Origin: a virus
Reading direction: 5' to 3' (one strand)
Virus record (IMG/VR): IMGVR_UViG_3300036985_002432
Coordinates: 1 to 64,000 of that record
Length of the DNA: 64,000 nucleotides
Part shown: piece after piece, positions 13,545 to 43,231 of the stretch
How positions within the stretch are numbered: position 1 is the first letter of the stretch
Layout of the letters: each line of letters opens with the position of its first letter
Translations under genes and position numbers: made by a program
Notes under the pieces: generated by a model
Databases searched by the model: none
Seen by the model: the letters and a program-made list of their open reading frames with translations, nothing else
Told to the model about the DNA's origin: nothing

Positions 13545-14411
13545 ATGGCAACACCAAGTATTAAACGCAAAACTGTAGTAACTGATCCTGAAGGAAATAA
13601 GATAACTACTAAAACTAGAAAAACTAATTTATTTGGACAAAAAGGTTCATCTAAAACAATTATAAAATATACTGATCCTGTATCTTCTGGTAAAAAAAGA
13701 GATGTTAAGTATACAGATGCACCAGTACCAAGTGATGAAGAATTAGGTATAAAGAAAAAAGGTGGTGTTACTAAAATGAAAACAAAAAAGTATGCAAATG
13801 GTGGACCTAAATTATCTAAATATCAAAAAAAGGGTGAAGTAACTCCTTTTCAAAATTATATGAACGTTCCAGGAGCTATGGCTAGTGATACATCAGATGT
13901 ATTTGCTGGATCACGTGATGGTTCAAATCCCCCTCTTGACAAAGCTTATTATGAAACATATTATGCTGGTCAAAAAGATAAAAGAAGAGTTGGAAATGAC
14001 AAAATAAAGTATGATGCTAATGGTAAACGTATTTATAAAACTGGTGGTATGGTAAATGCTAATGCTAAGATTGCTGCTGCTAAAAAAGCAACTGGTAGAT
14101 CAGGTGGCACTACTAAAGCAATTTCTAAAGTTGTTGTTAAATCTACTTCTCCTAAAGGAAGAGTAGGTGGTACATCAACTGCTCCTAAAAAAGCTTTACC
14201 AAAAGCACAAATGGGTGCAATTGTTAATGGACCTAAATCACCAGGTGGTAAGCCAAAAGCAGGAGGAGCAATTTTAAAAAAAACAGATCCTACATTAGGA
14301 GGTAGAATACCTAAGTCTTTTATAGGAAAAGGTACACCAAAAGCTGGGGGTTTAATTTTAAAAAATATGTCAAAATCTAAGATGGGTGGAATGAAAGGTA
14401 AATCTTGCTAA
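13545..14411 (+). CDS. Lys/Gly-rich basic protein, putative internal head protein
   Basis: Very basic, low complexity; several xxGG motifs and LPKAQMG. Confidence 0.65.
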   Translation: MATPSIKRKTVVTDPEGNKITTKTRKTNLFGQKGSSKTIIKYTDPVSSGKKRDVKYTDAPVPSDEELGIKKKGGVTKMKTKKYANGGPKLSKYQKKGEVTPFQNYMNVPGAMASDTSDVFAGSRDGSNPPLDKAYYETYYAGQKDKRRVGNDKIKYDANGKRIYKTGGMVNANAKIAAAKKATGRSGGTTKAISKVVVKSTSPKGRVGGTSTAPKKALPKAQMGAIVNGPKSPGGKPKAGGAILKKTDPTLGGRIPKSFIGKGTPKAGGLILKNMSKSKMGGMKGKSC

Positions 14412-14842
14412 TGGCAAAGACTGGCTTATATAGTAATATACATGCTAAAAGAAAAAGGATAGCATCATGTTCCGGAGAGAGAATGAAAACTCCCGGAACT
14501 AAAGGTGCTCCTACTAATAAAGATTTTATAAAGTCTGCAAAGACTGCTAAAATGAAATCAGGAGGATCAACTCCAGCTTGGACAAGATCAGAAGGAAAAA
14601 ATCCTACAGGAGGATTAAATGCTAAAGGTGTTGCATCTTATAGAGCAGCTAACCCCGGTAGTAAATTAAAAACTGCTGTAACAACTAAACCTTCAAAACT
14701 TAAAGCAGGTAGCACTGCTGCTAATAGAAGAAAATCTTTTTGTGCCAGAATGTCTGGCATGAAGAAAGTAAATACAAGTGCAAAGACTGCTAATGATCCT
14801 AACTCAAGGATTAATAAGTCTTTGAGAAAATGGAACTGTTAA
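14411..14842 (+). CDS. Basic two-module protein with a DUF6321-like C-terminal module
   Basis: TAATG coupling gives start 14411; AWTRSEGKNPTGGLNAKG...RRKSFCARM...SLRKWNC module joined through MKSGG to a GLYSNIHAKRKR module. Confidence 0.7.
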   Translation: MAKTGLYSNIHAKRKRIASCSGERMKTPGTKGAPTNKDFIKSAKTAKMKSGGSTPAWTRSEGKNPTGGLNAKGVASYRAANPGSKLKTAVTTKPSKLKAGSTAANRRKSFCARMSGMKKVNTSAKTANDPNSRINKSLRKWNC

Positions 14843-14853
14843 AATAATATATA

Positions 14854-15243
14854 ATGGCAAAGAAACTAGGATGTGCTTCTTGTGGAGGTACAAAAAAAAT
14901 GGCTAATGGTGGACCTATAAATAAACCAATGACATATGCACCACGTCAAAAAGGTGATACAAACCAACATATGGGAATATTTGGTGCACCTCAAATTGGT
15001 CAAGGAGCAATGGATGGTAAGACAGGTCAAATGAAAAAAGGTGGAGTTACTGTCAGTAGAGCAGTACAAGCATCTTGTAAAAATGGTTATGTTAGATCTG
15101 CTGATGGAGGTTGTGTAAAAGCAAGACCTATTCAATTTCAAACAGGTGGAATATTTTCTCCTGCAAAAAGAGTAGAAAGAAAAGTTAATAGAGCTATTAA
15201 AAAAAGTGTTAAAAACTCAGGTAAAATTATTAAGAATGCATAA
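14854..15243 (+). CDS. Small basic protein with xxGG motifs
   Basis: MANGG, MKKGG, FQTGG; Lys-rich. Confidence 0.65.
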   Translation: MAKKLGCASCGGTKKMANGGPINKPMTYAPRQKGDTNQHMGIFGAPQIGQGAMDGKTGQMKKGGVTVSRAVQASCKNGYVRSADGGCVKARPIQFQTGGIFSPAKRVERKVNRAIKKSVKNSGKIIKNA

Positions 15244-15388
15244 GCCAAAAAAAGGTATGATTAAAGCTGTAATTAAAGGTGCATTTAAATCACTTAAACC
15301 AAAAAGTAAAGATGCTCGTGAAGCATATAGAGAAACAAAGGCTTATGAAAAGTCTATAAGAAAAGAGTTTAAACAAAAAAAAATATAG
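15236..15388 (+). CDS. Small Lys-rich protein
   Basis: ATG at 15236 overlaps the upstream gene end; fills the gap to the next gene. Confidence 0.55.
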   Translation: MHKPKKGMIKAVIKGAFKSLKPKSKDAREAYRETKAYEKSIRKEFKQKKI

Positions 15389-15390
15389 TC

Positions 15391-16245
15391 ATGGCAAATC
15401 CAATTACAATAATAAAAAATTTATCAGCTGGTTATGATGCCGGTAAAAAACTTAATGCTGCAGCTAAAATTAAAAAAGCTAAAGATGCAACTGAAGCTGC
15501 ACTTAAGGCTAAACAAAAAGCTGAAGAAGTTATAAGACTTGCTAAAATTGCAAAAGAAGCTAAAAGAGTTGCTGGTTTAGAAAAGAAAGCAGCAACATTA
15601 AAAACTCTTAAAGTTGCTGCAGGTACAGGTATAGCAGGTGTTGCAGCCGGAGCTTATATGAATAGTAAATATAATGCTAGTAGCGCAGCTAAAAAAATTG
15701 CAGAAGGTAAGAGACTTAAAGCTGCTGGAGCTGCAATGAAAATTAAAGGTACTACACAAAAAAATAAAGGTATTGCAATGAAACTTGCGGGGCGTGAAAT
15801 GAAAATGGGTGGTGCAACTAAAACATTACCTAAAGCACAAGTTGGTAACTTTGTTGATTCACCAAAAAAACCTGCAACTAAAACATATAAGATTGGTGAT
15901 CCTACACCATCTGGAAGATTTGTAAAAACTCCACAAGATGTTGAAAGACTTAACAAAATGGAAAGATTAAATTCATATAGAAGGCCTGTTGATAAATATA
16001 ATAAACCTGTAGTTAAACCAATACCAATACAAAAAGTTGGTGGAGTAACTAAAGCATTACCTAAAGCACAACTTGGTACAATTATAAACGGTATATCACG
16101 GTTAAAAAAAATATACAATGTGTATACTACAGGTATACAATCTTCAAAATTAGGTAAATTACCTGCTGCTAAAAAAGTTAAAAAAAGTGGTGTAACAAAA
16201 GTAATGTCAAAATCATTTAATGCCATTAAAAACAAAAAGAAATAA
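15391..16245 (+). CDS. Lys/Ala-rich basic protein with two LPKAQxG linkers
   Basis: Histone-like composition; short hydrophobic AAGTGIAGVAAG segment. Confidence 0.7.
   Translation: MANPITIIKNLSAGYDAGKKLNAAAKIKKAKDATEAALKAKQKAEEVIRLAKIAKEAKRVAGLEKKAATLKTLKVAAGTGIAGVAAGAYMNSKYNASSAAKKIAEGKRLKAAGAAMKIKGTTQKNKGIAMKLAGREMKMGGATKTLPKAQVGNFVDSPKKPATKTYKIGDPTPSGRFVKTPQDVERLNKMERLNSYRRPVDKYNKPVVKPIPIQKVGGVTKALPKAQLGTIINGISRLKKIYNVYTTGIQSSKLGKLPAAKKVKKSGVTKVMSKSFNAIKNKKK
15808..16078 (+). repeat. Imperfect ~40-bp direct repeat (15808-15847 and 16039-16078)
   Basis: ggtggtgcaactaaaacattacctaaagcacaagttggta versus ggtggagtaactaaagcattacctaaagcacaacttggta. Confidence 0.85.
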
Positions 16246-16248
16246 AAC

Positions 16249-16953: not shown

Positions 16954-16958
16954 AAATA

Positions 16959-17411
16959 ATGGAAAAAGCAAGAATGTTAAAAAGAACAGCAACTCCAAGT
17001 GCATCATATTCAAGTGCACCAGCAGGTGCAAATTGTGATACAATGACAGCAGCATGTGCAACAGAATTAATGAATGCTGCATCTAGTTTTCATAAACTTC
17101 ACTTAAAGGTTAAAGGATCAGGATCATTTGCTGCACACAAAGCACTTAATGAATTGTATGATGCTTTACCAGATCACGCAGATACTTTAATAGAAGGGTA
17201 TCAAGGAGCTGCTGAAAAGATTTTAGATTACTCTGAAGTATCTCCAAAAGTATTAAATACAGTTGAAGAAGCAATTGGATACTTAAGAGAAATGTATCAA
17301 ATGGTTAATAATCTTCAATCAAAAATGCCATATTCTGAAATTATAAATTCTTTAGATACTTTAAAGGATTCTATTAATTCAGCTAAATACAAACTTTTGT
17401 TCTTAAAATAA
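16959..17411 (+). CDS. Ferritin/Dps-like four-helix bundle protein (DUF5856-like)
   Basis: HKLHL...FAAHKALNELYD...DTLIEGYQG resembles Dps ferroxidase-centre residues. Confidence 0.75.
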   Translation: MEKARMLKRTATPSASYSSAPAGANCDTMTAACATELMNAASSFHKLHLKVKGSGSFAAHKALNELYDALPDHADTLIEGYQGAAEKILDYSEVSPKVLNTVEEAIGYLREMYQMVNNLQSKMPYSEIINSLDTLKDSINSAKYKLLFLK

Positions 17412-17472
17412 TTTGATTAGTCAGATTATTTTATTATATTAATTATATATTTATAAATTAAAACTTAAAAAA

Positions 17473-19005: not shown

Positions 19006-19025
19006 TATTCAATAATTATTAAACT

Positions 19026-19064
19026 AAAAAGGGGAGAGAGTTTCATACTCCTTCCCTTTTTTTT
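19026..19064 (+). terminator. Intrinsic terminator
   Basis: AAAAAGGGGAGAGAG...CTCCTTCCCTTTTTTTT. Confidence 0.85.
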
Positions 19065-19076
19065 ATTAAACTCACC

Positions 19077-19619: not shown

Positions 19620-19638
19620 CCATAAAAAACCAACAGAT

Positions 19639-24434: not shown

Positions 24435-25220
24435 ATGTTAACAAGAAAAAGATTATTTTATGACATTGAAACTTCATTTTGTCAAGGCACTTTTTGGAGA
24501 CCTGGTTATGATCAAACAATACATCCTAATCAAATTTTAAAATACGCACAAATTATTTGTATATCATGGAGTTGGGAGGGAGATGACAAAGTACATCATT
24601 TAGATTGGGGATTAAAAAAACAATGTGATAAAGAATTATTAAAAGTTTTTATAAAAGTATTAAATGATGCAGATGAGATAGTTGCACATAATGGAGACAG
24701 ATTTGATATAAAGTGGATAAGAACAAGAGCACTATATCATGGATTAGAAATGCGTCCACATTATAATAGTATTGATACTTTAAAATTATGTAAAACTTAT
24801 TTAAGTTTACCAAGTAATAAATTATCTGAAGTTGCAAGATATTATAATCTTACTGCTAAGTTAGATCCCGGAGGTTTACAAACATGGATTGATATTGTAA
24901 TTAATAAAGATAAAGAAGCAATGAAAATAATGTTGCATTACTGTGATGGTGATATTGTAACATTAAAAAAAGTATATGAGAAGATAAGAGTATATACTAA
25001 ACCTAAACTTAACTATGCTGTATTAACCGGTGGTGATAAATATGAATGTCCAGAGTGTGGCCATACTACAATTTATATAAATAAAACTTATACAACAGCT
25101 ATGGGAACTATTAAACATCATGTAAGATGTAAGAGTAAAATATGTAGAACAAGTTTTACTATTAATAACAAAGCTTACATGGATTATTTAAGCTTTAAAA
25201 GAATAAATAATATAAAGTAG
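24435..25220 (+). CDS. RNase H-like DEDD 3'-5' exonuclease with C-terminal Zn ribbon
   Basis: ExoI FYDIETS, ExoII AHNGDRFD, ExoIII YCDGD; CPECG...C-x4-C. Confidence 0.85.
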   Translation: MLTRKRLFYDIETSFCQGTFWRPGYDQTIHPNQILKYAQIICISWSWEGDDKVHHLDWGLKKQCDKELLKVFIKVLNDADEIVAHNGDRFDIKWIRTRALYHGLEMRPHYNSIDTLKLCKTYLSLPSNKLSEVARYYNLTAKLDPGGLQTWIDIVINKDKEAMKIMLHYCDGDIVTLKKVYEKIRVYTKPKLNYAVLTGGDKYECPECGHTTIYINKTYTTAMGTIKHHVRCKSKICRTSFTINNKAYMDYLSFKRINNIK

Positions 25221-25281: not shown

Positions 25282-25869
25282 ATGAGTAATAAAGTATTTA
25301 ACAAACCTGATGTTACAGCACCAAGATATAGAGAGACTGTACATCAAGTTACAACTGATAAATTTTTTAAAGCTTTTAAAGAAAAGTATCCAAAGTATGA
25401 AGATGTCAAGGATAGTGAATTAAAAAAAGTAATAAAAGCATTTAACATATTATTCTGGGAAACTGTAGTAGACACAAGAGACGGTGTACAACTACCAGAA
25501 GAATTAGGTTATGTATTTGTAGGCACATGTCAAACTAGTAAGAAGACTAATATTGATTTTGGTAAATCAAATAAGTATGGATTTTTAGTTACTAATAACA
25601 ACTGGGATACAGATGGTAAGTTAGCTAAGATATTTTATACTAATGATGCAAATAAATATAAGTTTGTAAATAGAGAGTGTTGGGCCTTTCAAGGTTGTAG
25701 AAACTTTAAAAGAACACTAGCAAAAACTTATCCGGAGAATTGGATGAACTATGTGCATGTTGACCCAATGAAAAAGATACGTAAAATATTTCAAGGCAAT
25801 GTTCTTAGAGAAATACGTAAAAATATAGAGACTAAGAAACTTGAAGATTATAATGAGTTTGACATATGA
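25282..25869 (+). CDS. IHF/HU-like protein of the tail module
   Basis: KVIKAFN...GVQLPEELGYVFV pattern; crAss-like phages carry IHF-like genes before the tail ring genes. Confidence 0.5.
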   Translation: MSNKVFNKPDVTAPRYRETVHQVTTDKFFKAFKEKYPKYEDVKDSELKKVIKAFNILFWETVVDTRDGVQLPEELGYVFVGTCQTSKKTNIDFGKSNKYGFLVTNNNWDTDGKLAKIFYTNDANKYKFVNRECWAFQGCRNFKRTLAKTYPENWMNYVHVDPMKKIRKIFQGNVLREIRKNIETKKLEDYNEFDI

Positions 25870-30500: not shown

Positions 30501-32816
30501 GGTATGGGTGTTAATACAGATGACAATCCATTTGATTCTTTTAATACAACTATTGCAAGTCATTATGCTGGAGTTAAAGTAAGAATAGATAATCAATATG
30601 GTCAACTAAATTCTATTAAACAAATTATAGTTACACCATGTGAACAAAAAATATCTGATTCAGGAATACAGACAATTACAACAAGTACATTTTGTCAAGG
30701 TATTGGTCAGTTACTTCAACAAGTAATTTCATCTACTCCAGTATTTTTTGGAGGAGATACATATATAAATAGATATACAGAAAAAAATACTATGTTCTTT
30801 TTCTATGATTGGTTATATGGTCAACCAGATGGATTTGAATATAATTACTATTTAAGAAATATGATTGGTGCTCCAAGATTTTGGGCTAACAGTCAAAGAT
30901 ATGATGTAAATAATTTAGGTGAATTATTTGATATTGGAAATCTTGAAAATTTACTTGAAGATATTGATGACGGTATAGGACCTTTTCCAACAAATTTTTA
31001 TAATTTAGATCAAAGGAATTATAATTATAATGATGACTCACATGGTGATTATCCTGGATTGTTTAGAGTTAAAAAATCTTATTTTTATTTAAATAATTCT
31101 TCAGTAAGAGATTTCTTTGTAGAGAGTGATGTAATAGTAGATTTTAGAGAAACAGGTATTCCTATATATGAAAAGGTTTATAACCCAAATACATATACGG
31201 ATCTATTAACTATGTTTACTAATAATCCGGAAACTATTACAAGAGGAAACTATTATGCATATGACTATTCACTAAGTGTATCTAAAATATTTACACAGTA
31301 TTTTTCACAAGCAAGTTTGCAAAGTAGATATTATGATCCTAATGTATCTAAGTTATGTTTTACTTATTATCCTGATAGAATAATATATTCATTACCTCAA
31401 CAACAACAATCATTTAAAGATAGTTGGTATGTGTATTTAGCTAATAACTATAAAGAGTTTAAGAATCAAATTAGTGGAGTTAAAAACTTTGCTAAGACTG
31501 GTATCTTTATTACATTTAAAAATGCAAGTCCTTTAGTTATACAAGGTGTTGACCAATTAGAAACTGAATCAGGTACTAAGATCACAATTGGTGATGGTGG
31601 ATTATTTGCACAAACTCCTCAAAGTGTTATAATTGCAGATGATGCATATGAGTATGGTTCTTCTCAAAATAGAAGAAGTGTTATATCCACTCCTGCAGGA
31701 ATGTTTTACATGTCACAGAATCAAGGTAAAATATTTCAATATACTCAAGGTATAACTGAAATATCTTCTGAAGGATTAAAGTGGTGGTATACTCTTTTCA
31801 TGCCATATAAACTTACTGAAGATTTTCCAGACTATCCGCATCAAGATAATCCAGTAGCAGGTATTGGATGTCAATCAGTATTTGATAATCAAAATAGTGT
31901 ATTGTATTTCTGTAAAAAAGATTATAAGTTAAAACCACAATATAAAGATTTAGTAACTTATAATACTAATACTGATGCATTTATGTTAGGTCAAACACCA
32001 TTTGCATTAGGTAATCCAATTTTATTTGAAGATGCTTCATGGACAACTAGTTATGATCCTAAAACTAAATTCTGGATTTCATTTCATGACTGGCATCCTG
32101 ATTTAGTAATGCCTTCTAAGCATACATTTATGACTACAAAAGAAAATGGAATCTGGAGACATAATGATTCATGTAATTCTTATTGTAATTACTATGGAGC
32201 AGACTACCCATTTGAAATAGAGATACCAATGGTAACAGGGCAAACTGTTACTACTGTAAAATCTATGGAGTATTTATTAGAATGTTATAAGAGATCAGAG
32301 TTTAATTGTGTGGATCAATTCCAAGTGTTAGACTTTAACTTTGATAGAGCTGTAGTATTTAATGCAGAACAAGTATCAGGATATCTTAACTTAAATATAT
32401 TTCCTAAAAATAATATTACATTAAGTTTAGACTACCCAAAATATAATCCGGGTAATCCTTCTTATGATATATTATTTAGTAAAGAAGAAAACAAATATAG
32501 ATTTAATCAGTTTTGGGATATAACAAAAGATAGAGGAGAGTTTCCTATTGGTTCAGTATATCCAAATACTACACCAGTAATTGCAGGTACTACAATTCTA
32601 CCGGGTGCACATACACAAGAAAATCTTTGGGTAACTCAATCTAATGGATATATTAAAACACTTAATCCTGTTAATCTTGATTACGCTAAAGATCCATTAC
32701 AAAGAAAAAAGATGAGACATTATTTAAATTTATTACATTTGAGAAAAGATGTTTCAGGAGATATCAATATGATATTAAAAATAAGTAATAGTAAAAATCA
32801 AATATCACTTAGGTAA
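27576..32816 (+). CDS. Large tail hub/muzzle (stabilisation-like) protein
   Basis: 1746 aa; N-terminal NTFIKGLNKD, YLRDEVYAF and WISFHDW motifs; follows the ring genes. Confidence 0.65.
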   Translation: MAKDNFQDTSKTNTNTFIKGLNKDSDPSFVAEGMWTHARNASNNTLEGDLGALSNESATIQCAIAGATLGPAGSKRYVIGTIYLYSDKWVIFTVAYAPTGLGAAIGSEIGLYEEDTCNYRPIVQDTCLNFSKYFLISGASRETQDCSWAVFFADGKNPDRHLNIGDPQTWPTSSYIWIGNNTYSMGTNTMQWPGVDWVQTCTTGATCIICTDTTELDCNAIRLARLMTTPCIKVSNAVGAGTLLNGSYSATIAYTINGQKVTDYFSASNIQPIFHPDNSLGSISIQIDADTVNFDEFVLVIIQTVNQGTIAKEIGYYSTRTTNIELDQIKLDLINIPIKQIPIQTPIFEKSDQMIEINNYLLRVGPTAKFDFNYQPLANLIQAEWVSVEYPANYYVNGGSNTSYLRDEVYAFFIRWVYNTGDKSSSYHIPGRAPINYNGDFETDPYFDINTLQGDTDLFQTVNTAIQTSSVQSTLPDGGLVVARGKMGYWQSTEIYPDNRPDIWNSSSQCWTAVSVPLPGQPAPFDLCGKPIRHHKFPDNRTNNHFSNGGQNIRLMGVDFKNIIYPKDNDGNDIRGIVGYEILRGSREGNKTIIAKGMINNLRDYNIKNGTNSSVGQPTGLYPNYPFNTIRPVTNSNNPNDNNYNLNDPYIKLTDENGNIVDQNVPINMTTFHSPDTNFRTPFLSNSELKLYGNLKGISTQQFIVPAQHPQFKLLGNLVIFPMFVAGIIEALISMGGEFTINKQPTTAGYNPIASGTSTTAATGEAVMGAAVTAYNTAIATYFSSGASVADAFVGYTALDAINSTFQGFINTAAASGTVQHGYLTYQRSFGKTEYLGPILGTIANIQQSVYYFCEGAELALRLMYALAPYDDYALQSIAHGFYDTYFTPLNTSRVRFNLADSFYLKDALQQVSQFPNPGNKRYLVNNLKRSNTVVLRTTNNLGVNDGPRFINSPSDIANSSVDNSLVTLGTANLAGMGVNTDDNPFDSFNTTIASHYAGVKVRIDNQYGQLNSIKQIIVTPCEQKISDSGIQTITTSTFCQGIGQLLQQVISSTPVFFGGDTYINRYTEKNTMFFFYDWLYGQPDGFEYNYYLRNMIGAPRFWANSQRYDVNNLGELFDIGNLENLLEDIDDGIGPFPTNFYNLDQRNYNYNDDSHGDYPGLFRVKKSYFYLNNSSVRDFFVESDVIVDFRETGIPIYEKVYNPNTYTDLLTMFTNNPETITRGNYYAYDYSLSVSKIFTQYFSQASLQSRYYDPNVSKLCFTYYPDRIIYSLPQQQQSFKDSWYVYLANNYKEFKNQISGVKNFAKTGIFITFKNASPLVIQGVDQLETESGTKITIGDGGLFAQTPQSVIIADDAYEYGSSQNRRSVISTPAGMFYMSQNQGKIFQYTQGITEISSEGLKWWYTLFMPYKLTEDFPDYPHQDNPVAGIGCQSVFDNQNSVLYFCKKDYKLKPQYKDLVTYNTNTDAFMLGQTPFALGNPILFEDASWTTSYDPKTKFWISFHDWHPDLVMPSKHTFMTTKENGIWRHNDSCNSYCNYYGADYPFEIEIPMVTGQTVTTVKSMEYLLECYKRSEFNCVDQFQVLDFNFDRAVVFNAEQVSGYLNLNIFPKNNITLSLDYPKYNPGNPSYDILFSKEENKYRFNQFWDITKDRGEFPIGSVYPNTTPVIAGTTILPGAHTQENLWVTQSNGYIKTLNPVNLDYAKDPLQRKKMRHYLNLLHLRKDVSGDINMILKISNSKNQISLR

Positions 32817-35800
32817 TGAGTTATAATAGAAAAGTACTTAAGACAGCTACTAAAGAATTAGGAAAAGCTAAAGCACCAGCTAAACCAAAAGATATTATTA
32901 TTGATCCAATGGGTCAATGGAAATATCCTGGACAAAATACTAGAATACCTGGTAGTAATATTACTATGCAAAATGTTTCTTATCCTGTATGGGCACAACC
33001 TAATGTAGGACCTGGTGCAATGATGTATCCTGAACAAGAATATCAATTTCCAGGAGCAGATTATGTAGATGAATTTCCTCAAGGTAGTAATGAAGATTAT
33101 TATGAAGATGAACTTGATGAAGAACAAATAGCAGAGTTAAGAGCAGGAGGATATACAGTAGAAGATATATCTGTACCTTCTGTAGGTAATTACAAACAAG
33201 GTGGTTCTTTACTTACTAAGAAAGTAGCATGTAAAAAATGTGGTTGGAAATGGGATGCTGCAGATGGTGGTGATGATGTTACTACATGTCATAAGTGTGG
33301 TGGTGAAGGATTAATACATGCTCAAACTGGTTTCTCAAGTCCTTATTATTCATATGGTGACAAAAAGTATATGAAAAAAAGTAATGATTGGTTAGTAGAT
33401 TATAATGGTAAATATGTTCCTCTATCTAAAAATGTTGCTGCAAGAAGTACTGAATTAAATAAAAATGCTAAATACGTTCCTGCCAAAACATTAGAAAAAT
33501 CTCCATATCAATTACAACAAGAAGCTAAATTAAAGTCAGGTCAATCTAATTATGATATGATGGCTAGTAATAAACCTCAAGTAGCTGATAATACAAAAGT
33601 TGTTAAAAATAAAATTGCAAGCTTAAGTGAACTTGCTGCAGCAGAAGCTATAAAAAAAGAATTTGTAGAAACTGAAAAAAAAATAAAAAATGATTTTAAT
33701 AATACTACTCAGTATTATGAAGATTATCATAAATCGCCAATGTATAAAAGTATGCTTAACAATAGTATGCGAGATTGGGGATGGGCAAAAGAAGATCCTT
33801 CTAATATTAGTGAAGGCAGATCTCAAAATTTAAAAAGTTTAGAATCACCTACTGTTTTAAAGGTTCAACCAACAGGAGAAGATGAAAATACAGGTGGATG
33901 GTCTTCTGGTAGTACAGGTAATATAACTGTTACACCACTAGGGTATAAAGTACAAGGAATACTTCCTCATGAAATATCACACAGTATAGATAGGCCTCTA
34001 CATAGGTGGAGTGATAGATTGATACCTACTAAAGATATAGCCGCTATTAATAAATTTAAACCTAAAAATTTTATAACTTCTTTAGAATTTCAAAATTTAT
34101 CTTCTTCTGACCAAAAAATGATATTAAATAATCCAGAAGACGAATATGTAAAAGAATATGTAAAAAATAAAGAAGAATGGAATGATTATGTTGGCACACC
34201 TACAGAAACAAGAGCTAGATTAAATGATATTAGAATGCAATCAAAATTTAAAGGTGTATATGATCCTTTTACTCAAAAAGTATCTCCTGATATTTATAAA
34301 AAACTTTTAAATACACCTTTTGAAAAAGATAAAAATGAAGGGTTTGATGCTTTAAAACAACTTAAAGGTATTTATACGGATAAACAAATTCAATGGATGT
34401 TAAATAATATCTCAAAAAATCAAGAACAAAATCAAGAAAATATTGAGCAAGGTGTTGCAAGAAAAGGTGGTAGTCTTAAAAAGTATTCTAGAAGTTTAGA
34501 AGCTACTAATAAATTATTTCATGTATCACCTTTATTAAAAAAAGCAAAGTCTAAAAAGAAAAAAATATTTGATCCTAGTTCTAGTTATTTTCAAGATGGT
34601 GGTTTTCTTCCTCAAGCACAATTTGGACTAAATGTAGATGAGAATGGTAAGCCTATCTATTATACTGAAGAAGAATACAGACATATGTCTGAAGCTAATC
34701 AAAGAGGAGATGTAGGTACAGAAAGTAATCCTACTGTAACAGATGAAGTTACAGTAAAAGCTCAAGGTCCTGATTGGGCTAAGTATGAAAAAGAATATTT
34801 AAGTAAACAAAGTAGAGATCAATTTATTGCAGATAAAAAAAGAGAGTATATTAAAAGACAAAAAAATCTTAATAGACTTGCTGGAGTTACAATGGATAAT
34901 TTTCCAGAAGAAGTAGAAAGAAACTTTGGTAACCGCTTTGATTATAATAAAAATAGTTATATAACTAGAAGACTTGGTAAACAAGATCATTTTAATCCAA
35001 AACGTAGAGGAGAATGGATTGATGAATTAACTCCAACAGAAAGAAAAATAGTTGCAGACTCAAAGTATGGTAGTAAACTACAACCAAATCTTTGGAAAAC
35101 ATCACTTGCAGGATTACAAGAACTTGGTAATGCTGCTATTAAAGCAAGTACATTTGGTATTGTAAATAAAGATGTATTAAAAAATAGAATATCAGGATTA
35201 ACAAAAAAAGAACAAGCAGAAATTGCTAATTCAAATACTGGTGCATTAAGCACAATGGATTTTATAGATCTTGCTGGAGCTGGTATATCTAATTTTGGAT
35301 TTAATAGAGGACTAAGTACTGGTTCTGACTATAAAGAGTTACCTTCATGGAGTTCAGGAGAATTAATGCCTAATGTAACTAGAACACATGCAACGTTAAT
35401 GAATCCACTTAATCTTATTGCACTGGGAGAACTAACGGCAGGTAAATCTTTATTAGGTTTAGGAGCAAATCAACTTAAGCAATTTGGAAAAACTGCTCCT
35501 GGTCTTATGAAAGAAGTACCTACAATAGTTAAATCTGTTGCAGATGCAAGTTATATGGGTATGAGACCAAGAAAACTTTATAGTCCTTTAAATTTAATTT
35601 CTAGATATGGAAAAAAAGTAGAGGGTAACATAACACCACTTGGTAATGTATTAAAAAGAACAATTCATAATGATGCTATTGGAGAACCTATTTCATGGGG
35701 AAACCGTACATGGAAATCAGTAACTGGAAAACCAATAGCACAAAATTTACTTAAGGAAAGACCAGGAGCTACAAATAATATTTTTTCAATGCAAGTAGAT

Positions 35801-36388
35801 CCTACAATTGCAGGATCAAATATATCAAAAGGTGCAACTGAACTACCAAATAAATTAAAAAATCTTAATTGGAAGCCAACAACTGAACTTAATTATATGG
35901 GTAAACCAACAACTTCAATACCTTTAAATGATGCAGGTCTTTCAATAAATAGAAGACTTCCTTTTTCTAATAGATATGTCTCTGTAGATCCACAAAAATT
36001 AATGAATAATAAATTTCAATGGTCAACTGCAGGTTCAGGTGTTCAAAATTTAGCAGAAAAATATGCAAGTACAAACGGAATCTTTGGTGGTATTGGATTA
36101 GGAGCAGTGGGTTATGGAGCTCTTAAAGAAGGTCAAAATCCAATTAGTGTTTATAATACAGTAAATCCACTTACAGGTAATAAAAAAGGATATGATGCCT
36201 ATACATTAATGGGAGAAAATACTTTTAAAAAATATATATCTAAACCAAATCCTTATTTTATTAGAGATATTGGTCAAGGAACAGGTTTAATTGAAAAAGC
36301 TGATGGAGGTTCAATTGAAATGGATGTAGATGATGATATGATACAATATCTATTATCACAAGGATATGATGTAGAAGACATTTACTAA
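32816..36388 (+). CDS. Modular virion cargo protein with Zn ribbon and zincin (HExxH) domain
   Basis: CKKC...CHKC; LPHEISH...ETRARL; modules separated by xxGG linkers. Confidence 0.7.
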   Translation: MSYNRKVLKTATKELGKAKAPAKPKDIIIDPMGQWKYPGQNTRIPGSNITMQNVSYPVWAQPNVGPGAMMYPEQEYQFPGADYVDEFPQGSNEDYYEDELDEEQIAELRAGGYTVEDISVPSVGNYKQGGSLLTKKVACKKCGWKWDAADGGDDVTTCHKCGGEGLIHAQTGFSSPYYSYGDKKYMKKSNDWLVDYNGKYVPLSKNVAARSTELNKNAKYVPAKTLEKSPYQLQQEAKLKSGQSNYDMMASNKPQVADNTKVVKNKIASLSELAAAEAIKKEFVETEKKIKNDFNNTTQYYEDYHKSPMYKSMLNNSMRDWGWAKEDPSNISEGRSQNLKSLESPTVLKVQPTGEDENTGGWSSGSTGNITVTPLGYKVQGILPHEISHSIDRPLHRWSDRLIPTKDIAAINKFKPKNFITSLEFQNLSSSDQKMILNNPEDEYVKEYVKNKEEWNDYVGTPTETRARLNDIRMQSKFKGVYDPFTQKVSPDIYKKLLNTPFEKDKNEGFDALKQLKGIYTDKQIQWMLNNISKNQEQNQENIEQGVARKGGSLKKYSRSLEATNKLFHVSPLLKKAKSKKKKIFDPSSSYFQDGGFLPQAQFGLNVDENGKPIYYTEEEYRHMSEANQRGDVGTESNPTVTDEVTVKAQGPDWAKYEKEYLSKQSRDQFIADKKREYIKRQKNLNRLAGVTMDNFPEEVERNFGNRFDYNKNSYITRRLGKQDHFNPKRRGEWIDELTPTERKIVADSKYGSKLQPNLWKTSLAGLQELGNAAIKASTFGIVNKDVLKNRISGLTKKEQAEIANSNTGALSTMDFIDLAGAGISNFGFNRGLSTGSDYKELPSWSSGELMPNVTRTHATLMNPLNLIALGELTAGKSLLGLGANQLKQFGKTAPGLMKEVPTIVKSVADASYMGMRPRKLYSPLNLISRYGKKVEGNITPLGNVLKRTIHNDAIGEPISWGNRTWKSVTGKPIAQNLLKERPGATNNIFSMQVDPTIAGSNISKGATELPNKLKNLNWKPTTELNYMGKPTTSIPLNDAGLSINRRLPFSNRYVSVDPQKLMNNKFQWSTAGSGVQNLAEKYASTNGIFGGIGLGAVGYGALKEGQNPISVYNTVNPLTGNKKGYDAYTLMGENTFKKYISKPNPYFIRDIGQGTGLIEKADGGSIEMDVDDDMIQYLLSQGYDVEDIY

Positions 36389-36447: not shown

Positions 36448-39400
36448 ATGAAAAGACGTGTAAGAATATATAAAGCTGGAGGACAACATGGTTCTTATAT
36501 AAATAAGACAGCTCAATATTTCCAAGAAGGTGGTATGCAGATGCAAGAAGAAGTTGCACCTGAAGAACAACCTGCTCAAGAACCAAGTGATGAACAAGTT
36601 ATTACATTCATTATGCAAACTCTATCACAACCTAATGGTAGTATAGAACAAGCTAAGCAACAACTTGTACAAGCAAATATAAATCCTGCACGTATTACAC
36701 AATTATCAGAAGCTGCATTAGAGTATATTAATCAACAACAAGATATAGCATTAGCTGAAGCAACTGGTAATGAAGAAGATGCTGCAGCAATGCAATTAGA
36801 ACAAGATGCTAATGATAGAGCAGTTGCTGAAGAAGAACAAGCTGCTCAACAAGCTGCACAGAATCAAGAGATGTATGCACAATCAGAAGAAAGTGCTGTA
36901 GATCCAAATGAAAATGATGACAGTAGTGCTGCTTATATGCGTAGTGGAGGTATGCCTAATAAAAGAGCATACATAAGTAACTTTATAAAACTTGCCAAAA
37001 AACAAGAAGGTGGAGATACAGAAGAATCTAAATCAGATATTAAAACAGATATCCCAGTAGGAGGTAGAGTAGAGAAAGTAAGTAAATTTCATAATGCATT
37101 AAAAAGTACTGCAAATAATGTTGCACTTAAAGAACAAGCAGAGAAACAATATGAGCAACAGATGCAACAAATGCAGCAGATGCCACCACAAGGTTATGCA
37201 CAAGATGGTGGAGACACTGAATCTGGTGTATCAGATTTTGACCCATATCATAATTTAGAACATTATAGTGGAGCTTTTGAACATTCAATGCCTTTTAATG
37301 CATTAACTGAAGCACAGTTTGGTGGATGGGGTCATGGTAGAGAAAGACGTGCAGCAAGAAGAATGAATAGAATGATGCCACAAGGATTTAATCAAATGGC
37401 TAATATAATGGGTAATATGGGTAATCAAATGATTAATCCCTTTATGCAACAACAAATGAATTCTCTTGCACAGTTTATGCCTAATCAAGGTAACTTAGGT
37501 TTAGCTAATATTGATGTACGTAGAACCGGTATATTTGGTAGACCAAAAGAATATACTATTAATTTTAATACAGCATCTCCTGTAACTATTAAAGATGTTG
37601 CAGATACAAAAAAGCAAGAAATTAATAATGCAGAAACAACTAAAAAAGAAGTTGAAGAAACAGTTAAAGAAGAAGAAACTAATACAGCAACTACTAAGAA
37701 TGCTGAAGTAGAAAAAACAGCAGATGAATTACCAGAAGAATCAGATATAACAGTTACTACAAATGAAGTAAAAAGAAACAGTGGTAAAAATTTATCAGGT
37801 GGAAATGAAAATGTAAATGTTATTGGAAATGGTACTGGAATTATGCCAATACCGGAACAACAACCAATACAAAGTAAAGGTGTAATTCAAAATGCAATTA
37901 ATAAAGCAAACCAATACCCTAGTATAGGAACTAATCAAAATATTACTCCAATTACCGGTGCAAAAGTTGGACCATTTGATTTTACAAAAATAGCAAATGT
38001 AGGACAAGGTATGGGTAATGTCCTTGCACAAACTGTTCAAGATAAAGCTAAAGCTGAAAAAATAGCTAAGTGGAAAGAACATTTAAGACAAGAAAAAATT
38101 AATGCATTACCATTTTTAGAAAAACAAATGTGGTATGCACAACATCCAGAAGATAAACCAAAAATTAAACCAGGTAAAAAACCAATATCTACAAGTAATA
38201 ATGGAGTTATTAAATGGCAACAAGGTGGATTTACAGATCCTAATTCTGGCTTATATAAATTCATGGGTGGTGGAGAAGACATGGATCAAGCTAACTTAGA
38301 TTATTCTGATTCTAAAAATATATCAACTCCATATTTTTCAAATGGTGGTTTATATAGATTTCAAAAAGAAGGTGAAGTTACTGATGAGAATACATGTCTT
38401 CCAGGTATGACTGGTTGTTTCCCACAAGGATCTGCAGGAAATAAAGAAGTAGTAGAATTAACTGAAGATGAAAAAGCAGCTAAGGTTATTGCAGATAAAG
38501 AAGCTGCTGATAAGCTTGTAGCATCTAAAATAGCTTCTGATAAACTTGCTGCAGAAACAGCAAGAAATGCTTACATTGATGAGCAAATGAAAAAAGGAAA
38601 TAATACAAATGGTAATATAGACTATGAAAACTTTAATTATGCACAACAGTATTTGCAAAATCTAGGTTTAGGAGCAAATAATCCTTTTTCATTTATATCC
38701 CGTGGAAACAACTGGAATAAAGCAATAGGAAGTCCTTATGGTACAGGAACACTTAATCCTATTAGTGGAATGATTGGACCTAATGCACAAGTAAGTAGTA
38801 TTAATGTAGATAAAACTAGAATGTTTGGCCCTAATAAAGGAGCTCCAAAAAAGTTTACAGTAAATTATAATGTACCAGGACAACCAGGTATTAATGCATC
38901 AGGTACACCACAAAGTTATGTAGGATCAGATGGACAAACACATTGGATGAATAATGGTAATCAATCTTCTAAAGGTAATCAAGAAACAGGTAGAAAAAGA
39001 CCAGTAGCAGATATGTTACTAAGATCTAGAGTTCCTGGTTTACAACAATTAGGTGCAAAAATGTATCCATGGGAAAATAATAATACATCAGAATCTATGT
39101 CAGGATTACATGATAAAGGTGATGAAGCTTATAAAGAACATTTTGGACATTATCCAGGTGAAGAAAAAATTAGTACAAAATTTATACATCCTACTCAAGA
39201 TCAATTAGAAAATGAAACATATGGACCAATTCCTGGATCAACTCCAGAAACTGATTCAGGATATCAACTTGATGCTGAAGGTATGAGAGCAATACCACAA
39301 TATGAATCTCCTTATAGTAAATTACAAACTAGACCACTTGAAAGATTTACCAATACTCCAGAACTTGTACCAATGAATTTCCCAGGTGTTGGTTCTAATT

Positions 39401-40917
39401 ATAGAGAAAGACAAGAAGAACCTAATACAGAAGAAATGCCACCAATGGTAAATACTGCTGGACCAATGATTGGTGCTGAAGATATGGTACAAGAATATGA
39501 ACAACCTTTTTCAGAAAAAGTTGATTTAATGAATTCTCAATTACAAGTTCCTGATTATTATCCTAATTCAATGGGTGATAGATTAACTCAAGAACAAGTA
39601 AGTCAAAATTTAAATGAAAATTTACAAGGTGTAGGATATATGCCGGAAAATGAATTATTAAATTATGATCATTATGATTCATCAAATGATTTTAAATTAG
39701 ATCCAATTACTAATAAACCAGTAATTAGACAAAGAATTAATAGACGTAATACAAATCCATCTAGTAATAATAGAGTAACTACTAATAATAATAATAATAA
39801 TAATAGAGCAGTTAATAATAAATCTGATGATGCACCTATTGAAAAAGTAAATTCAAATGTATCAAAAACAACTTTAACACCAAAACAACAAAAAGCAGAT
39901 CAAGAATATAAAAGAAAACAAGTAGAACAAGAAGCAAGATCATATATAGTTCCTGAAGGTTCTAATCCTATTTATAATAATTCTGATGAAGTAATTTCAG
40001 ATGTAGCTAAACGACAAGAACAAGCTCAAAAAAGTTTTAGACAAGCTCAAGAAAAGTTTAAAAAAACATATGGTATTGATCAATCTACATTAGAAATGTA
40101 TTTAAATGTAGAAAATACAGATCAAGCTAGATCAATGGAAAAAGCTTACCCACAATTAAAACAAGCAGCTATTAAATATAAACCAGTATATACTAGACAA
40201 GCTCAAGAAAAAGCTGTACAAGATATTTTTAATAGAGCAACAACAATGTTCCAACGTCAATATGGTGGTAATGCACTTCCTAAAGCTCAATTTGGCCCTC
40301 CTGAAGATATACCATTTGGATATTTTAAAGATCCTAATGGAACAGGAGTTTATAGAAATTTAGCCGGTGAAATTTATAAACCTAAAACTAATCTTGAAGG
40401 TAATACAGATAAGTTAATGGGTAATGAATTTACTCAAGAAGGTAATGGATTAACTACAGACAAATCTATGGGTTTTGATTCATCTGGTACTGGTTATAGA
40501 AATGAAGGTTTATTATCTGATGAAGAAAAACAAGCAGGTGCTATGAATAAAGTATCTCAAAAGTTTAAGAATAAACAAGAGTGGAATATAGATGCTAAAG
40601 GTGCATTAGATTTTGGTAATATGGCTGGTAATAAACTAGCTGGATTTTTAGAAAGATCTCAACAAGCTAAACAAAATAGAAACATGGGTAGTAAATATGA
40701 TGCTTCTAATTTGTATGCACAAACAGATGAAAGAGATAGAGGTACCTATGGTCAAGAAGGTGATTTTAAACCAAATGAAACTGGATTTAAAGGTGTAGTT
40801 AAGTATGGTGGCTACATGGAAGAAGGTGGTAGTTATGAAGAAGGTGGTGACACTTGGATGTCTGAAGAACAAATACAACAGTTCTTGGCTGAAGGTGGTG
40901 AATTAGAATTTGTTTAA
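36448..40917 (+). CDS. Large low-complexity putative cargo/ejection protein
   Basis: 1489 aa, Q/E/N-rich, many Phi-x-x-GG motifs. Confidence 0.7.
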   Translation: MKRRVRIYKAGGQHGSYINKTAQYFQEGGMQMQEEVAPEEQPAQEPSDEQVITFIMQTLSQPNGSIEQAKQQLVQANINPARITQLSEAALEYINQQQDIALAEATGNEEDAAAMQLEQDANDRAVAEEEQAAQQAAQNQEMYAQSEESAVDPNENDDSSAAYMRSGGMPNKRAYISNFIKLAKKQEGGDTEESKSDIKTDIPVGGRVEKVSKFHNALKSTANNVALKEQAEKQYEQQMQQMQQMPPQGYAQDGGDTESGVSDFDPYHNLEHYSGAFEHSMPFNALTEAQFGGWGHGRERRAARRMNRMMPQGFNQMANIMGNMGNQMINPFMQQQMNSLAQFMPNQGNLGLANIDVRRTGIFGRPKEYTINFNTASPVTIKDVADTKKQEINNAETTKKEVEETVKEEETNTATTKNAEVEKTADELPEESDITVTTNEVKRNSGKNLSGGNENVNVIGNGTGIMPIPEQQPIQSKGVIQNAINKANQYPSIGTNQNITPITGAKVGPFDFTKIANVGQGMGNVLAQTVQDKAKAEKIAKWKEHLRQEKINALPFLEKQMWYAQHPEDKPKIKPGKKPISTSNNGVIKWQQGGFTDPNSGLYKFMGGGEDMDQANLDYSDSKNISTPYFSNGGLYRFQKEGEVTDENTCLPGMTGCFPQGSAGNKEVVELTEDEKAAKVIADKEAADKLVASKIASDKLAAETARNAYIDEQMKKGNNTNGNIDYENFNYAQQYLQNLGLGANNPFSFISRGNNWNKAIGSPYGTGTLNPISGMIGPNAQVSSINVDKTRMFGPNKGAPKKFTVNYNVPGQPGINASGTPQSYVGSDGQTHWMNNGNQSSKGNQETGRKRPVADMLLRSRVPGLQQLGAKMYPWENNNTSESMSGLHDKGDEAYKEHFGHYPGEEKISTKFIHPTQDQLENETYGPIPGSTPETDSGYQLDAEGMRAIPQYESPYSKLQTRPLERFTNTPELVPMNFPGVGSNYRERQEEPNTEEMPPMVNTAGPMIGAEDMVQEYEQPFSEKVDLMNSQLQVPDYYPNSMGDRLTQEQVSQNLNENLQGVGYMPENELLNYDHYDSSNDFKLDPITNKPVIRQRINRRNTNPSSNNRVTTNNNNNNNRAVNNKSDDAPIEKVNSNVSKTTLTPKQQKADQEYKRKQVEQEARSYIVPEGSNPIYNNSDEVISDVAKRQEQAQKSFRQAQEKFKKTYGIDQSTLEMYLNVENTDQARSMEKAYPQLKQAAIKYKPVYTRQAQEKAVQDIFNRATTMFQRQYGGNALPKAQFGPPEDIPFGYFKDPNGTGVYRNLAGEIYKPKTNLEGNTDKLMGNEFTQEGNGLTTDKSMGFDSSGTGYRNEGLLSDEEKQAGAMNKVSQKFKNKQEWNIDAKGALDFGNMAGNKLAGFLERSQQAKQNRNMGSKYDASNLYAQTDERDRGTYGQEGDFKPNETGFKGVVKYGGYMEEGGSYEEGGDTWMSEEQIQQFLAEGGELEFV
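39784..39804 (+). repeat. (AAT)7 microsatellite encoding poly-Asn
   Basis: aataataataataataataat, in frame. Confidence 0.8.
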
Positions 40918-40927
40918 AAATATAGTT

Positions 40928-43231
40928 ATGTATCATAAAGTAAGAATAACCAAATTACCAGGTAAAGCTAGAGGTGGTAAAATTAATGGTAATAGAATAG
41001 TACCAAATCAATCACTTAGTTTTGGTGGAGCAGATATGAAGTCTGGTCCTAAAAATATTAGTGTAGCTAATACTATCTCAGCAGTACCACGGAATCAAGC
41101 TAATTTAGAGGCTGAAGGAGGGGAAACTGTTTATGGTGACATTAATGGGGATGGTATGGCAGAACACCTTGTGATTAAAGGGCCAAGACATTCATCCGGT
41201 GGTGTTCCATTAAATCTTCCTGATGATACTTTTATCTTTAGTGATACTAGAAGTATGCGTCTTAAAGATCCTAATATGTTAGCACAATTTGGTAAGAGTG
41301 TAAAAAAAGGTCAGTCATATACTCCAGCAGAATTAGCTAAACAATATGATTTAAGTAAGTATAGAAAAATGTTACAAGATCCTGAGTCAGGTGATCTTGA
41401 AAGAAAAACTGCAGAGATAATGATCCGTAACTATACTATGAAGTTAGGAGCATTAGCATTAGCACAAGAAAGTAAAAAAGGCTTTCCTCAAGGTATACCA
41501 GAAGTGGCTAGACCATACATGGATGCTAATGATATTAAAGATGAAGACTTAATACCAAAGTTAGCTCAAGAACAAGAACAACAATCTGCTGAAGAAGAAG
41601 GTGCTGAGCAAGGTGAAGAACAGAATCCAGAAGAAGAAATGATGGAAGCTCCAGAGCAAATGCCTAATGGAGAACAAGTTGCTATGCCTCAAGAAATGCA
41701 ACAACCAATGGCTCAATATGGATATCAAATGACTGAAGATACAATGCCTTTTAATCCAGGTTATATGTATCCAGAATATGAAACATATGAGCAAACACCA
41801 ACTCAATATGCTAGAGGAGGTTCTTTGCCTAAAGCACAGGATGGTGCAGCAACTCCTCCATATGGAATGGATGAAGCATATACTCCTAAAGGTGTAGTAA
41901 GATTAAATCAATATAGAGTTAAATACGGTCTTCCTCCAATTGGTGGTAAAGGTAAACCACTTACTAAAGCAGATATTAAAAAAGCTGCAGGTGAAATGCA
42001 ACAAGTTATTATTGAAAAAAATCCTGAGTTAGTATTACACTATATTCAAAATAAAAGTCATGCACCAAGTAATGCTATTAAGCAAAAATTAGGTGTAAAA
42101 ACAAATGCTGATATTGCTAAAAAATTAAAAGAAGGAAAAATAAAAGCTTCTGATATTACCAGTGCATATAAAGATGACCAATGGTGGTACCGTGCTATTG
42201 ATACTCAATCTAAAGTTTTATCAAAGGCTGACTATGAAGCAAAAATGAAACAAGAAAATGCAATTTTACAAGGTGATAAAAAATATTTTAATGAAGATCC
42301 TAGTAATCCAGAAATGTATACTGAATATACAATGGCTGAAGATGCACCTATTGTAACTGAAGAAGAAAAAGATATTGAAGTTATTGATAGAGGAGATGAT
42401 GCTGAAGAACTTGATATAGAAGACGCACCAAGAAACGTTGATGCTCAATGGATGACACCAGATAAAATAAATTTTTATGGTGCTATGAAAGATAAGTCAA
42501 GAATTAAAAAGTTTATGCCTTGGGCTCCAAGAACAGAGTTAGAAGTACCAACTATGACTTACTTAGATCCTACTAGAGAGTTAGGTCAACAAAGTGAATA
42601 TGCAAACTTAATGGCACAGCAATTAGGTCAGTTTACAGGACCTCAAGCTTTTGCATCTAATATGTCTAGTATTCAAGGAACTGGTGCTGAACAAGCAGCA
42701 AATACTTTATCAAGAATTAATAATGCTAATGTATCTGCATCTAATTCATTTGCACAAAATGCTGCCAATATTAGAAACCAAGAACAAGGTATTAATCAAA
42801 CTTCAGCACAAACATTATATGATCAGAATACAATGGCTGATCAACAATTCTTAAATGCTAAAATTGCAGCAGATCAAAATGTAAGACAAGCATTTGGAAC
42901 TGGTTGGAAAAATGCATCTAACTTAGCTTTAACTAATGGATTGTATTCACAATATGATATAGATCCTAGAACTGGTAACTTATGGTTTGAAGGTGGTAAA
43001 GATATTGTACCTACTCATTCACAAGCAATTTCAGAAAGAGCAATGGAAATACATGATGGTGGAGTAGATGATTGGAAAATTGCATATCAAATGGCTAAAG
43101 ATGAATATAATCAAAATGATGTAGCTGCAGTTGATATGGAAGAAATCATGAATAACACATTAAAAAAAGGTGGTCAAGCAAACATGGGTTATGTTATGGG
43201 GTCAAATGTATTTCCCTTTATGTTTTACTAA
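40928..43231 (+). CDS. Putative cargo/ejection protein
   Basis: ATG at 40928 preferred (MYHKVRI parallels MKRRVRI upstream); EAEGGE and GPRHSSGG motifs; N/Q/A-rich helical C-terminus. Confidence 0.7.
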   Translation: MYHKVRITKLPGKARGGKINGNRIVPNQSLSFGGADMKSGPKNISVANTISAVPRNQANLEAEGGETVYGDINGDGMAEHLVIKGPRHSSGGVPLNLPDDTFIFSDTRSMRLKDPNMLAQFGKSVKKGQSYTPAELAKQYDLSKYRKMLQDPESGDLERKTAEIMIRNYTMKLGALALAQESKKGFPQGIPEVARPYMDANDIKDEDLIPKLAQEQEQQSAEEEGAEQGEEQNPEEEMMEAPEQMPNGEQVAMPQEMQQPMAQYGYQMTEDTMPFNPGYMYPEYETYEQTPTQYARGGSLPKAQDGAATPPYGMDEAYTPKGVVRLNQYRVKYGLPPIGGKGKPLTKADIKKAAGEMQQVIIEKNPELVLHYIQNKSHAPSNAIKQKLGVKTNADIAKKLKEGKIKASDITSAYKDDQWWYRAIDTQSKVLSKADYEAKMKQENAILQGDKKYFNEDPSNPEMYTEYTMAEDAPIVTEEEKDIEVIDRGDDAEELDIEDAPRNVDAQWMTPDKINFYGAMKDKSRIKKFMPWAPRTELEVPTMTYLDPTRELGQQSEYANLMAQQLGQFTGPQAFASNMSSIQGTGAEQAANTLSRINNANVSASNSFAQNAANIRNQEQGINQTSAQTLYDQNTMADQQFLNAKIAADQNVRQAFGTGWKNASNLALTNGLYSQYDIDPRTGNLWFEGGKDIVPTHSQAISERAMEIHDGGVDDWKIAYQMAKDEYNQNDVAAVDMEEIMNNTLKKGGQANMGYVMGSNVFPFMFY

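Follow-up and report, generated by a model that had tools for sequence, protein, structure and literature searches.

We analysed a 64,000-nt stretch of virus DNA, positions 1 to 64,000 of IMG/VR virus record IMGVR_UViG_3300036985_002432 (hereafter the window). The record is 92 kb long and ~77% complete, and 28 kb of it lies beyond the window. The window belongs to a crassvirus-like phage with ring 2, ring 1 and muzzle genes. All of its long open reading frames (ORFs), those of the motif proteins included, are on the plus strand; G+C content is ~30%. Several proteins of its structural block share a junction peptide, [F/Y/M]-[K/Q]-x-G-G-x(1-3)-L-P-[K/Q]-A-Q-x-G, which is an inter-module connector of crassvirus-type cargo proteins. 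The peptide has two halves, Phi-x-x-GG (Phi, hydrophobic residue; hereafter the GG half) and LPKAQxG, which also occur separately.

Motif-bearing genes of the window

Proteins are named here by the start position of their genes. Three motif proteins are large and are encoded between the muzzle gene and giant RNA-polymerase-like ORFs. The gene order 3' of the muzzle is 32816, 36448, 40928, a GIY-YIG homing endonuclease gene, a gene for a 1012-aa (amino acid) protein, and giant ORFs of 1933, 4066 and 2022 aa that run from 46971 on. The same order is found in crAss001, in which the genes of cargo proteins C1 and C2 and of the virion RNA polymerase proteins follow the muzzle gene. Judged by this gene order, the three large motif proteins are most likely packed into the particle and ejected.

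Cargo-position protein 1 (32816..36388; 1190 aa) starts with a module that it has in common with gp041 of Cellulophaga phage phi17:2. An internal acidic mini-module (33110-33175), YKQGG (33191-33205) and a zinc ribbon (33233-33310) precede the zincin module (~33653-34450; HEISH at 33968-33982), which is followed by VARKGG (34454-34471), the junction FQDGGFLPQAQFG (34589-34627) and an acidic C-terminal tail (36305-36385). The CxxC...CxxC zinc ribbon is itself a mini-module flanked by GG motifs; in some homologues this ribbon also occurs after the zincin junction (e.g. ...KKGGSLLTKKVTCKKCG). Cargo-position protein 2 (36448..40917; 1489 aa) opens with a basic N-terminal tag, MKRRVRIYKAGG (36448-36483), followed by FQEGG (36520-36534) and further Phi-x-x-GG strings. 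Its junction, QYGGNALPKAQFG, is at 40258-40296, and its acidic C-terminal tail, GGDTWMSEEQIQQFLAEGGELEFV, at 40843-40914. Cargo-position protein 3 (40928..43231; 767 aa from the ATG) has a basic N-terminal tag, MYHKVRITKLPGKARGG (40928-40978), a junction, YARGGSLPKAQDG (41807-41845), in a predicted disordered linker, and LKKGG (43160-43174) in its disordered C-terminus. The gene starts 14411 and 40928, taken from the preliminary description of the window, are ATGs inside ORFs listed from 14405 and 40910; the names 40910 and 40928 denote one gene, by its ORF start and its ATG start. No Pfam family was found for 32816, 36448 or 40910 at E ≤ 0.01. PDB sequence searches with 40910 and 36448 gave no match, nor did tblastn of 40910 against cultured phages.

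The motif extends in this phage to four small basic proteins beside the capsid gene (pI 10.3-11.2; 19-23% K+R). The first (13545..14411; 288 aa, pI 10.3, 14% Gly, ten GG) has no Pfam or PHROG family and contains YANGG (13791-13805), YKTGG (14034-14048) and, nine residues after a GG, LPKAQMG (14196-14216). In the second (14411..14842; pI 11.2), MKSGG (14552-14566) is followed by a C-terminal DUF6321 domain (PF19846, E 4e-19), the only match obtained when the motif proteins were compared with Pfam and PHROGs. The third (14854..15243; 129 aa, pI 10.6) contains MANGG (14899-14913), MKKGG (15031-15045) and FQTGG (15136-15150). The fourth (15391..16245; 284 aa) consists of three mini-modules with junctions MKMGGATKTLPKAQVG (15799-15846) and QKVGGVTKALPKAQLG (16030-16077). 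In its few homologues the mini-modules appear in other combinations, always recombined at GG-x-TK-x-(LPKAQxG).

The locus 13545-16245, which has conserved genes on either side, is hypervariable. Among 46 relatives whose capsid protein is ≥91% identical, it measures 1.4-4.9 kb and changes in gene content; the DUF6321 domain is its sole nearly constant piece. A leader of the form MKNTFTNPLKTFNDNNALAIKKMGG...KKSL[PR]KAQxG is common to proteins P0123-P0129 of relatives, the bodies of which differ.

Occurrence of the motif in the window

Six LP[KQ]AQxG sites in five proteins had been described, and all six were confirmed (14196, 15826, 16057, 34607, 40276 and 41825). The number expected from composition is 0.0015 (20,726 ORF residues). 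Each site is 1-9 residues downstream of a GG, and all other ORFs, both of the window and of the 28 kb beyond it, were free of the motif; the ORF-wide scan bore out that the motif is confined to otherwise dissimilar proteins of the structural block. All 17 Phi-x-x-GG strings listed previously were also found. Their recurrence is real, with ~three-fold enrichment in the seven proteins, but it is a weaker signal than that of the LPKAQxG half. F, Y, W or M stands at position -3 before the first G in 18 of 53 GG of the seven proteins and in 13 of 95 elsewhere (Fisher p=0.006); the background frequency of these residues at -3 is 11-13%. Position -2 is mostly K, Q, A or R in the seven proteins, which contain 1.23 GG per 100 aa where their Gly content predicts 0.80.

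The preliminary description placed the motifs at module boundaries and regarded all seven proteins as putative head cargo. The first claim holds for the junctions, whereas several GG of the large proteins fall inside folded domains. For the second, gene order supports the three large proteins, and no support was obtained for the four small basic ones.

The motif is selected as a peptide

When viral contigs were scanned with the pattern GG-x-LPKAQ-x-G, the 13-residue peptide was found in at least 119 stretches. Among the loci listed, all 103 pattern matches were read in frame, and the ORFs that contain them span 40 to ~2,700 codons, with nearly all above 150. In 122 unique contexts, only the 13 residues [F/Y/K]-[K/Q]-x-G-G-[S]-L-P-K-A-Q-x-G carry information; on both sides the sequence is random. 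In homologues of 40910 with 40-50% identity, the motif position is kept as Y-A-x-G-G-x-[LIM]-[PVYIF]-[KQER]-A-Q-x-G.

Codon usage was compared in 140 copies. At G, P, A and Q, codon choice follows the background of the ORFs concerned, and only the Leu and Lys codons lean slightly toward the commonest codon. The six copies in the window differ synonymously (TTA/CTT/TTG, CCA/CCT, GCA/GCT, CAA/CAG, GGT/GGA/GGC). Because the flanks are unrelated and synonymous codons vary freely, selection acts on the peptide. The string LPKAQ occurred in no phage paper found in a literature search, and no published description of the peptide was found; the junction peptide is apparently undescribed so far.

Junctions connect modules

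In AlphaFold models, the junction of 40910 closes a disordered stretch (residues 218-319; predicted local distance difference test score, pLDDT, <50) just ahead of the next folded domain, and the junctions of 32816 that follow its zincin domain are likewise in predicted disorder (pLDDT <50). Exactly at the junction, 40910 homologues carry insertions of 75-250 residues or have a swapped middle part.

In 75 other proteins, homologues of the 32816 zincin module stand at the start, in the middle or at the end. At its end, Phi-A-[KQR]-x-GG was present in 51 of the 75 homologues (21% expected, p=3e-18; counted within 15 residues of the projected place), with unrelated sequence beyond. Where this module closes the protein, the final residues are '...EGMA', just before the expected [KR]xGG (9 cases; Fisher p=0.009). 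Both states occur in phi17:2 gp042, in which the first zincin is followed by YAQAGG and the second, terminal zincin has no GG. Since terminal modules lack the GG, the GG half does not belong to the fold but is a connector, present only where further sequence comes after the module. The halves were also found near protein ends: LPKAQxG stands alone 6-20 residues from N-termini, with no GG upstream, and GG motifs lie 5-10 residues from C-termini.

The GG half is also present in a cultured phage. The phi17:2 protein gp041, annotated as a virion structural protein, contains four [FY]QxGG strings together with the N-terminal module of 32816. Its gene adjoins that of the two-zincin protein gp042, and this phage is a possible experimental model for the GG half. 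Cellulophaga phage phi4:1 likewise has [FY]QxGG strings and a protein with two zincins.

End tags of consecutive cargo genes are paired

The acidic C-terminal tails of 32816 and 36448 have the common form GG..(D/E)..I..(F/L)L..G(G/Y)(E/D)(L/V)E(F/D)(V/I), and the basic tags that open 36448 and 40928 have the form M.K(K/R)VRI.K(LP..). In the window, the tail at 36305-36385 is followed by the tag at 36448-36483, and the tail at 40843-40914 by the tag at 40928-40978; both pairs obey the rule that an acidic C-terminal tail of one gene goes with a basic N-terminal tag of the next. The acidic mini-module at 33110-33175 is an internal copy of the tail. End tags were called with small profiles in 177 unique consecutive gene pairs from diverse motif-bearing contigs. 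Both tags were present in 24 of the 177 pairs, and 7 pairs were discordant (p=2e-22), most of which look like weak forms of the same pairing. In many phages, the N-terminal tag has an LPKAQxG-like core (KKLPKAQQG, KLPQAKTG). This pairing suggests that the end tags may couple separate cargo chains head to tail.

Zincin modules and search for proteases

Protein 32816 is predicted to carry an intact zincin metallopeptidase module. The H, E and H of its motif are near-invariant, and block-mean pLDDT of the model is mostly 72-96. A Foldseek search of PDB with this model gave nothing significant. In an exhaustive structural search, nearly all of the top 50 matches were zincins, including PepO (Z 8.7), neprilysin (8.3) and lethal factor (7.0); Pro-Pro endopeptidases scored Z 6.1-6.8. 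In a comparison with predicted structures of viral proteins, the model also matched annotated structural proteins of Cellulophaga phages phi14:2 (E 1e-6) and phi4:1 (E 5e-6), an indirect sign that the carrier is a particle protein. Homologues of the zincin module adjoin M23, Amidase_2, GH19, LysM, SET and ADP-ribosyltransferase domains. HExxH occurred in 31 of 120 motif ORFs (0.31 per 1000 aa) and in 3 of 358 others (0.022 per 1000 aa), a 14-fold difference.

A second zincin-type motif, YHEAWHGF (HEAWH), is located at 55423-55437 in the 4066-aa giant protein (ORF start 52783). It resembles YHEAFHVVF of crAss001 gp47, an RNA-polymerase-associated protein.

The cargo zincin modules, with HEISH in 32816 and HEAWH in the 4066-aa protein, are the sole candidate proteases found. 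The Ulp1/C48- or C39-like protease for which the preliminary description called was not detected: there was no C48 match (PF02902) in this 77%-complete genome, the only genome searched for C48, and no C39 match (PF03412) in five genomes. Neither S77, S78 nor ClpP (PF03420, PF04586, PF00574) was matched in the five genomes. C5 adenain (PF00770) was not matched in this genome and four complete relatives, although a divergent or novel protease could escape such a search. Complex prediction with the 32816 zincin, zinc and the junction segment of 40910 (residues 286-330) gave a score of 0.15 against a mark of 0.32, which is not evidence either way.

The polyvalent proteins described by Iyer et al. 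(PMC5512222) are large mosaics delivered with the DNA, in which zincins are the commonest module, and 32816 fits this mosaic-plus-HExxH type. That paper names no linker or site, whereas here one 13-residue peptide marks the joints. The Pfam polyvalent zincin model gave no sequence match, and 25 zincin-module homologues had no Pfam family at E ≤ 0.001. The nearest named Atlas cluster is LPD23, whose score of 0.83 is a lead only.

Is the junction cut?

On our preferred reading, the junction is an uncut recognition handle combined with a flexible hinge and read by one conserved partner; our rough probability for this interpretation is 0.4. The peptide would stay uncut in the particle, and the portal, the tail barrel, the capsid interior, the scaffold or another cargo protein may be the partner. 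With this handle, the phage would load its unfolded, beads-on-a-string cargo, park it and bring it into order for tail passage, and the pairs of acidic C-terminal tail and basic N-terminal tag may do the same job between separate chains. The occurrence of LPKAQxG at N-termini and of GG near C-termini is a position independence that suits a handle better than a cut site; cutting at a GG 5-10 residues from the C-terminus would free a tiny peptide only. In the crAss001 particle, gp45 passes through the portal in a partly unfolded state. The domain modelled at the portal (residues 425-552) opens with A-F-G-G, and in the authors' interpretation one continuous chain spans from tail to capsid (PMC10172136). 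Four or five Phi-A-Phi-GG strings (SAYGG, KAFGG, NAFGG, FAYGG) are present in gp45. A virion study (PMC6235969) gives gel bands of ~58, 85-100, 150, 270 and >300 kDa, near full-length cargo sizes.

Several points weigh against the uncut handle. crAss001 is without LPKAQxG, so its evidence for an uncut chain bears on the GG half only, and the gel bands are compared with the cargo proteins by size. The capsid-loading tag proposed in the preliminary description is compatible with the data as well, but no partner or receptor was identified. The LPKAQxG half is missing from about half of the small-protein loci of close relatives and is therefore not indispensable for the small proteins; packaging of all four of these proteins is only putative. 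Zincin modules are strongly overrepresented among the motif ORFs, and conservation, disorder and the rule that junctions occur only between modules would be accounted for just as well by a protease site.

The junction may instead be a processing site, at which a cargo zincin or a host protease frees the modules as effectors. We regard this as possible though somewhat unlikely; of its two forms, cutting after ejection into the cell is unlikely, and cutting during head maturation is more so. Processing would account for junctions that lie in predicted disordered linkers between modules only, and a specific 13-residue sequence would suit reading by a protease; however, motif halves also stand alone at the extreme ends of proteins, and only 1 of 76 complete motif-bearing ORFs ends in GG. 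The near-invariant H, E and H of the 32816 zincin, its confident model and the 14-fold HExxH enrichment argue for processing, but zincins are the commonest polyvalent domain anyway, so the enrichment may merely mark the protein class. With their shared leader and hypervariable locus, the small basic proteins are reminiscent of the internal proteins of T4, in which a capsid targeting sequence is removed by cutting. No C39, C5, S77, S78 or ClpP protease was found in the five genomes and no C48 in this one; the GG joint of crAss001 is modelled as continuous, and the gel bands are near full-length cargo sizes. Zincins have been proposed to process polyvalent and crAss-like virion proteins, a point that the authors left open (PMC5512222; bioRxiv 10.1101/2020.03.07.982082, Drobysheva et al.), but the virion RNA polymerase of N4 is packaged unprocessed despite its zincin domain (PMC5512222). 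A literature search, judged by titles and abstracts, gave no pointer to cleavage of crassvirus cargo. Of the earlier proposal that these are polyproteins cut at di-Gly sites, the junctions and the zincin module are present, whereas evidence of cleavage and, in the genomes searched, dedicated proteases were not found.

Processing and end tags can be combined. Junctions and tags would then constitute an 'assembly and release code' of crassvirus cargo, in which the tails and tags couple separate chains head to tail so that ejection is ordered, and cargo zincins cut the junctions after injection, freeing effectors that include the small basic proteins. We consider this scheme doubtful. If true, phages would have their own version of the polyprotein maturation at Gly-Gly sites of adenovirus and African swine fever virus (ASFV), with a different protease class.

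It is also rather improbable that the junction is a passive connector, a Gly-Gly hinge with a preferred local conformation and no partner, kept because cassettes swap together with their linker. Such a hinge would let modules unfold and traverse the tail singly, and it agrees with the predicted disorder, with module-exchange breakpoints exactly at the GG and with the lack of an identified partner. However, hinges are normally degenerate, whereas here seven positions are essentially fixed in more than 100 unrelated contexts despite synonymous drift; LPKAQxG also recurs at N-termini, where there is nothing to hinge.

A DNA-level signal, that is, a recombination or regulatory sequence of which the peptide is a by-product, is very improbable. 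Module exchange does occur at the site, and T-even tail-fibre genes have conserved motifs that promote swapping; however, background-like use of the G, P, A and Q codons across 140 copies largely rules out such a signal, and the six window copies vary synonymously. Chance or a low-complexity artefact of Gly/Lys-rich sequence is negligible, since six sites stand against 0.0015 expected and, although the sequences of the four small proteins are of low complexity, with much G and K, the motif in the large proteins also lies in acidic, non-repetitive contexts and recurs in more than 100 unrelated ORFs.

Comparison with known systems

As here, the genes of crAss001 cargo proteins C1 (gp45) and C2 (gp46) follow the muzzle gene directly and precede those of the giant RNA-polymerase-like proteins (Bayfield et al. 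2023, PMC10172136). The N-terminus of gp45 (MAKKKIKRRG...) is basic, and within the protein lies an acidic stretch, MSVEELEALMVQSGETGEI, similar to the C-terminal tails described above; the Phi-A-Phi-GG strings adjoin the ordered segments of the protein. Unlike the window, crAss001 has no LPKAQxG, and no conserved junction peptide was described in it (PMC10172136). Between 40910 and gp45 there is no detectable similarity of sequence or fold beyond short shared strings. Searches for homology of the two were negative: BLASTP gave E 0.69 and hhalign a probability of 0.3, and the resemblance by eye was matched neither by a profile search of PDB, which did not return gp45, nor by Foldseek against PDB, which gave nothing at E ≤ 0.001.

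Adenovirus adenain and ASFV pS273R are Gly-Gly-directed proteases that act on basic core proteins or virion polyproteins with hydrophobic-x-G-G sites. The small basic Gly-rich proteins of the window are superficially like adenovirus pVII and pX. The junction differs from the adenovirus sites: its hydrophobic residue is at P5, one position further from the GG than P4 of the adenovirus consensus, and the LPKAQxG half has no counterpart. No clan CE protease was found (C48 searched in this genome, C5 in this genome and four complete relatives). The likeness to T4 internal proteins is one of small basic proteins encoded in a hypervariable locus beside head genes, with unrelated bodies and a shared short leader. 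Unlike in T4, no S77 prohead protease was found in the five genomes, the tag is also internal and repeated, and cutting and packaging of the present proteins are putative.

How crassviruses choose, load, order and eject several megadaltons of cargo, and whether their giant mosaic proteins are processed, is a question raised in the literature. The 13-residue peptide and the paired end tags are concrete, mutable targets for this question, and with the peptide as a simple sequence criterion, cargo proteins and their module boundaries can be located in uncultured phages.

Genomic context and other genes

The head genes at 4467..13523 encode the large terminase, the portal, a 413-aa protein, the major capsid protein and a 337-aa protein of unknown function. 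The 413-aa protein (9543-10784) is acidic and helical (pI 4.7), and is scaffold-like by position and composition only. Tail ring protein 2 (25866-26537) and tail ring protein 1 (26537-27574) were assigned with Pfam, in which the region of the two genes matched PF25702 (E 2e-21) and PF24228 (E 4e-10). They are followed by the muzzle gene (27576-32816; PF25731 crAss_MUZ, E 7e-24). The nearest cultured kin of the capsid protein are all distant: Leptolyngbya phage Lbo-JY46, a crAss-like phage, and Cellulophaga phages phi17:2 and phi4:1. The lineage is very abundant: relatives of this capsid protein were found in at least 598 viral-contig stretches, and the best 80 of them are ≥91% identical.

A CHAP/NlpC-P60 cell-wall hydrolase is encoded at 236-754. 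It is probably a lysin and was not taken as a maturation protease, because its closest families are tail lysozyme and endolysin. The GIY-YIG homing endonuclease gene inserted among the cargo genes (43295-43930) includes NUMOD motifs. A ferritin/Dps-like protein (16959-17411; DUF5856, E 3e-15) is encoded within the structural block, and a DNA-polymerase-exonuclease-like gene (24435-25220; phrog_403, E 3e-54) lies amid the tail genes.

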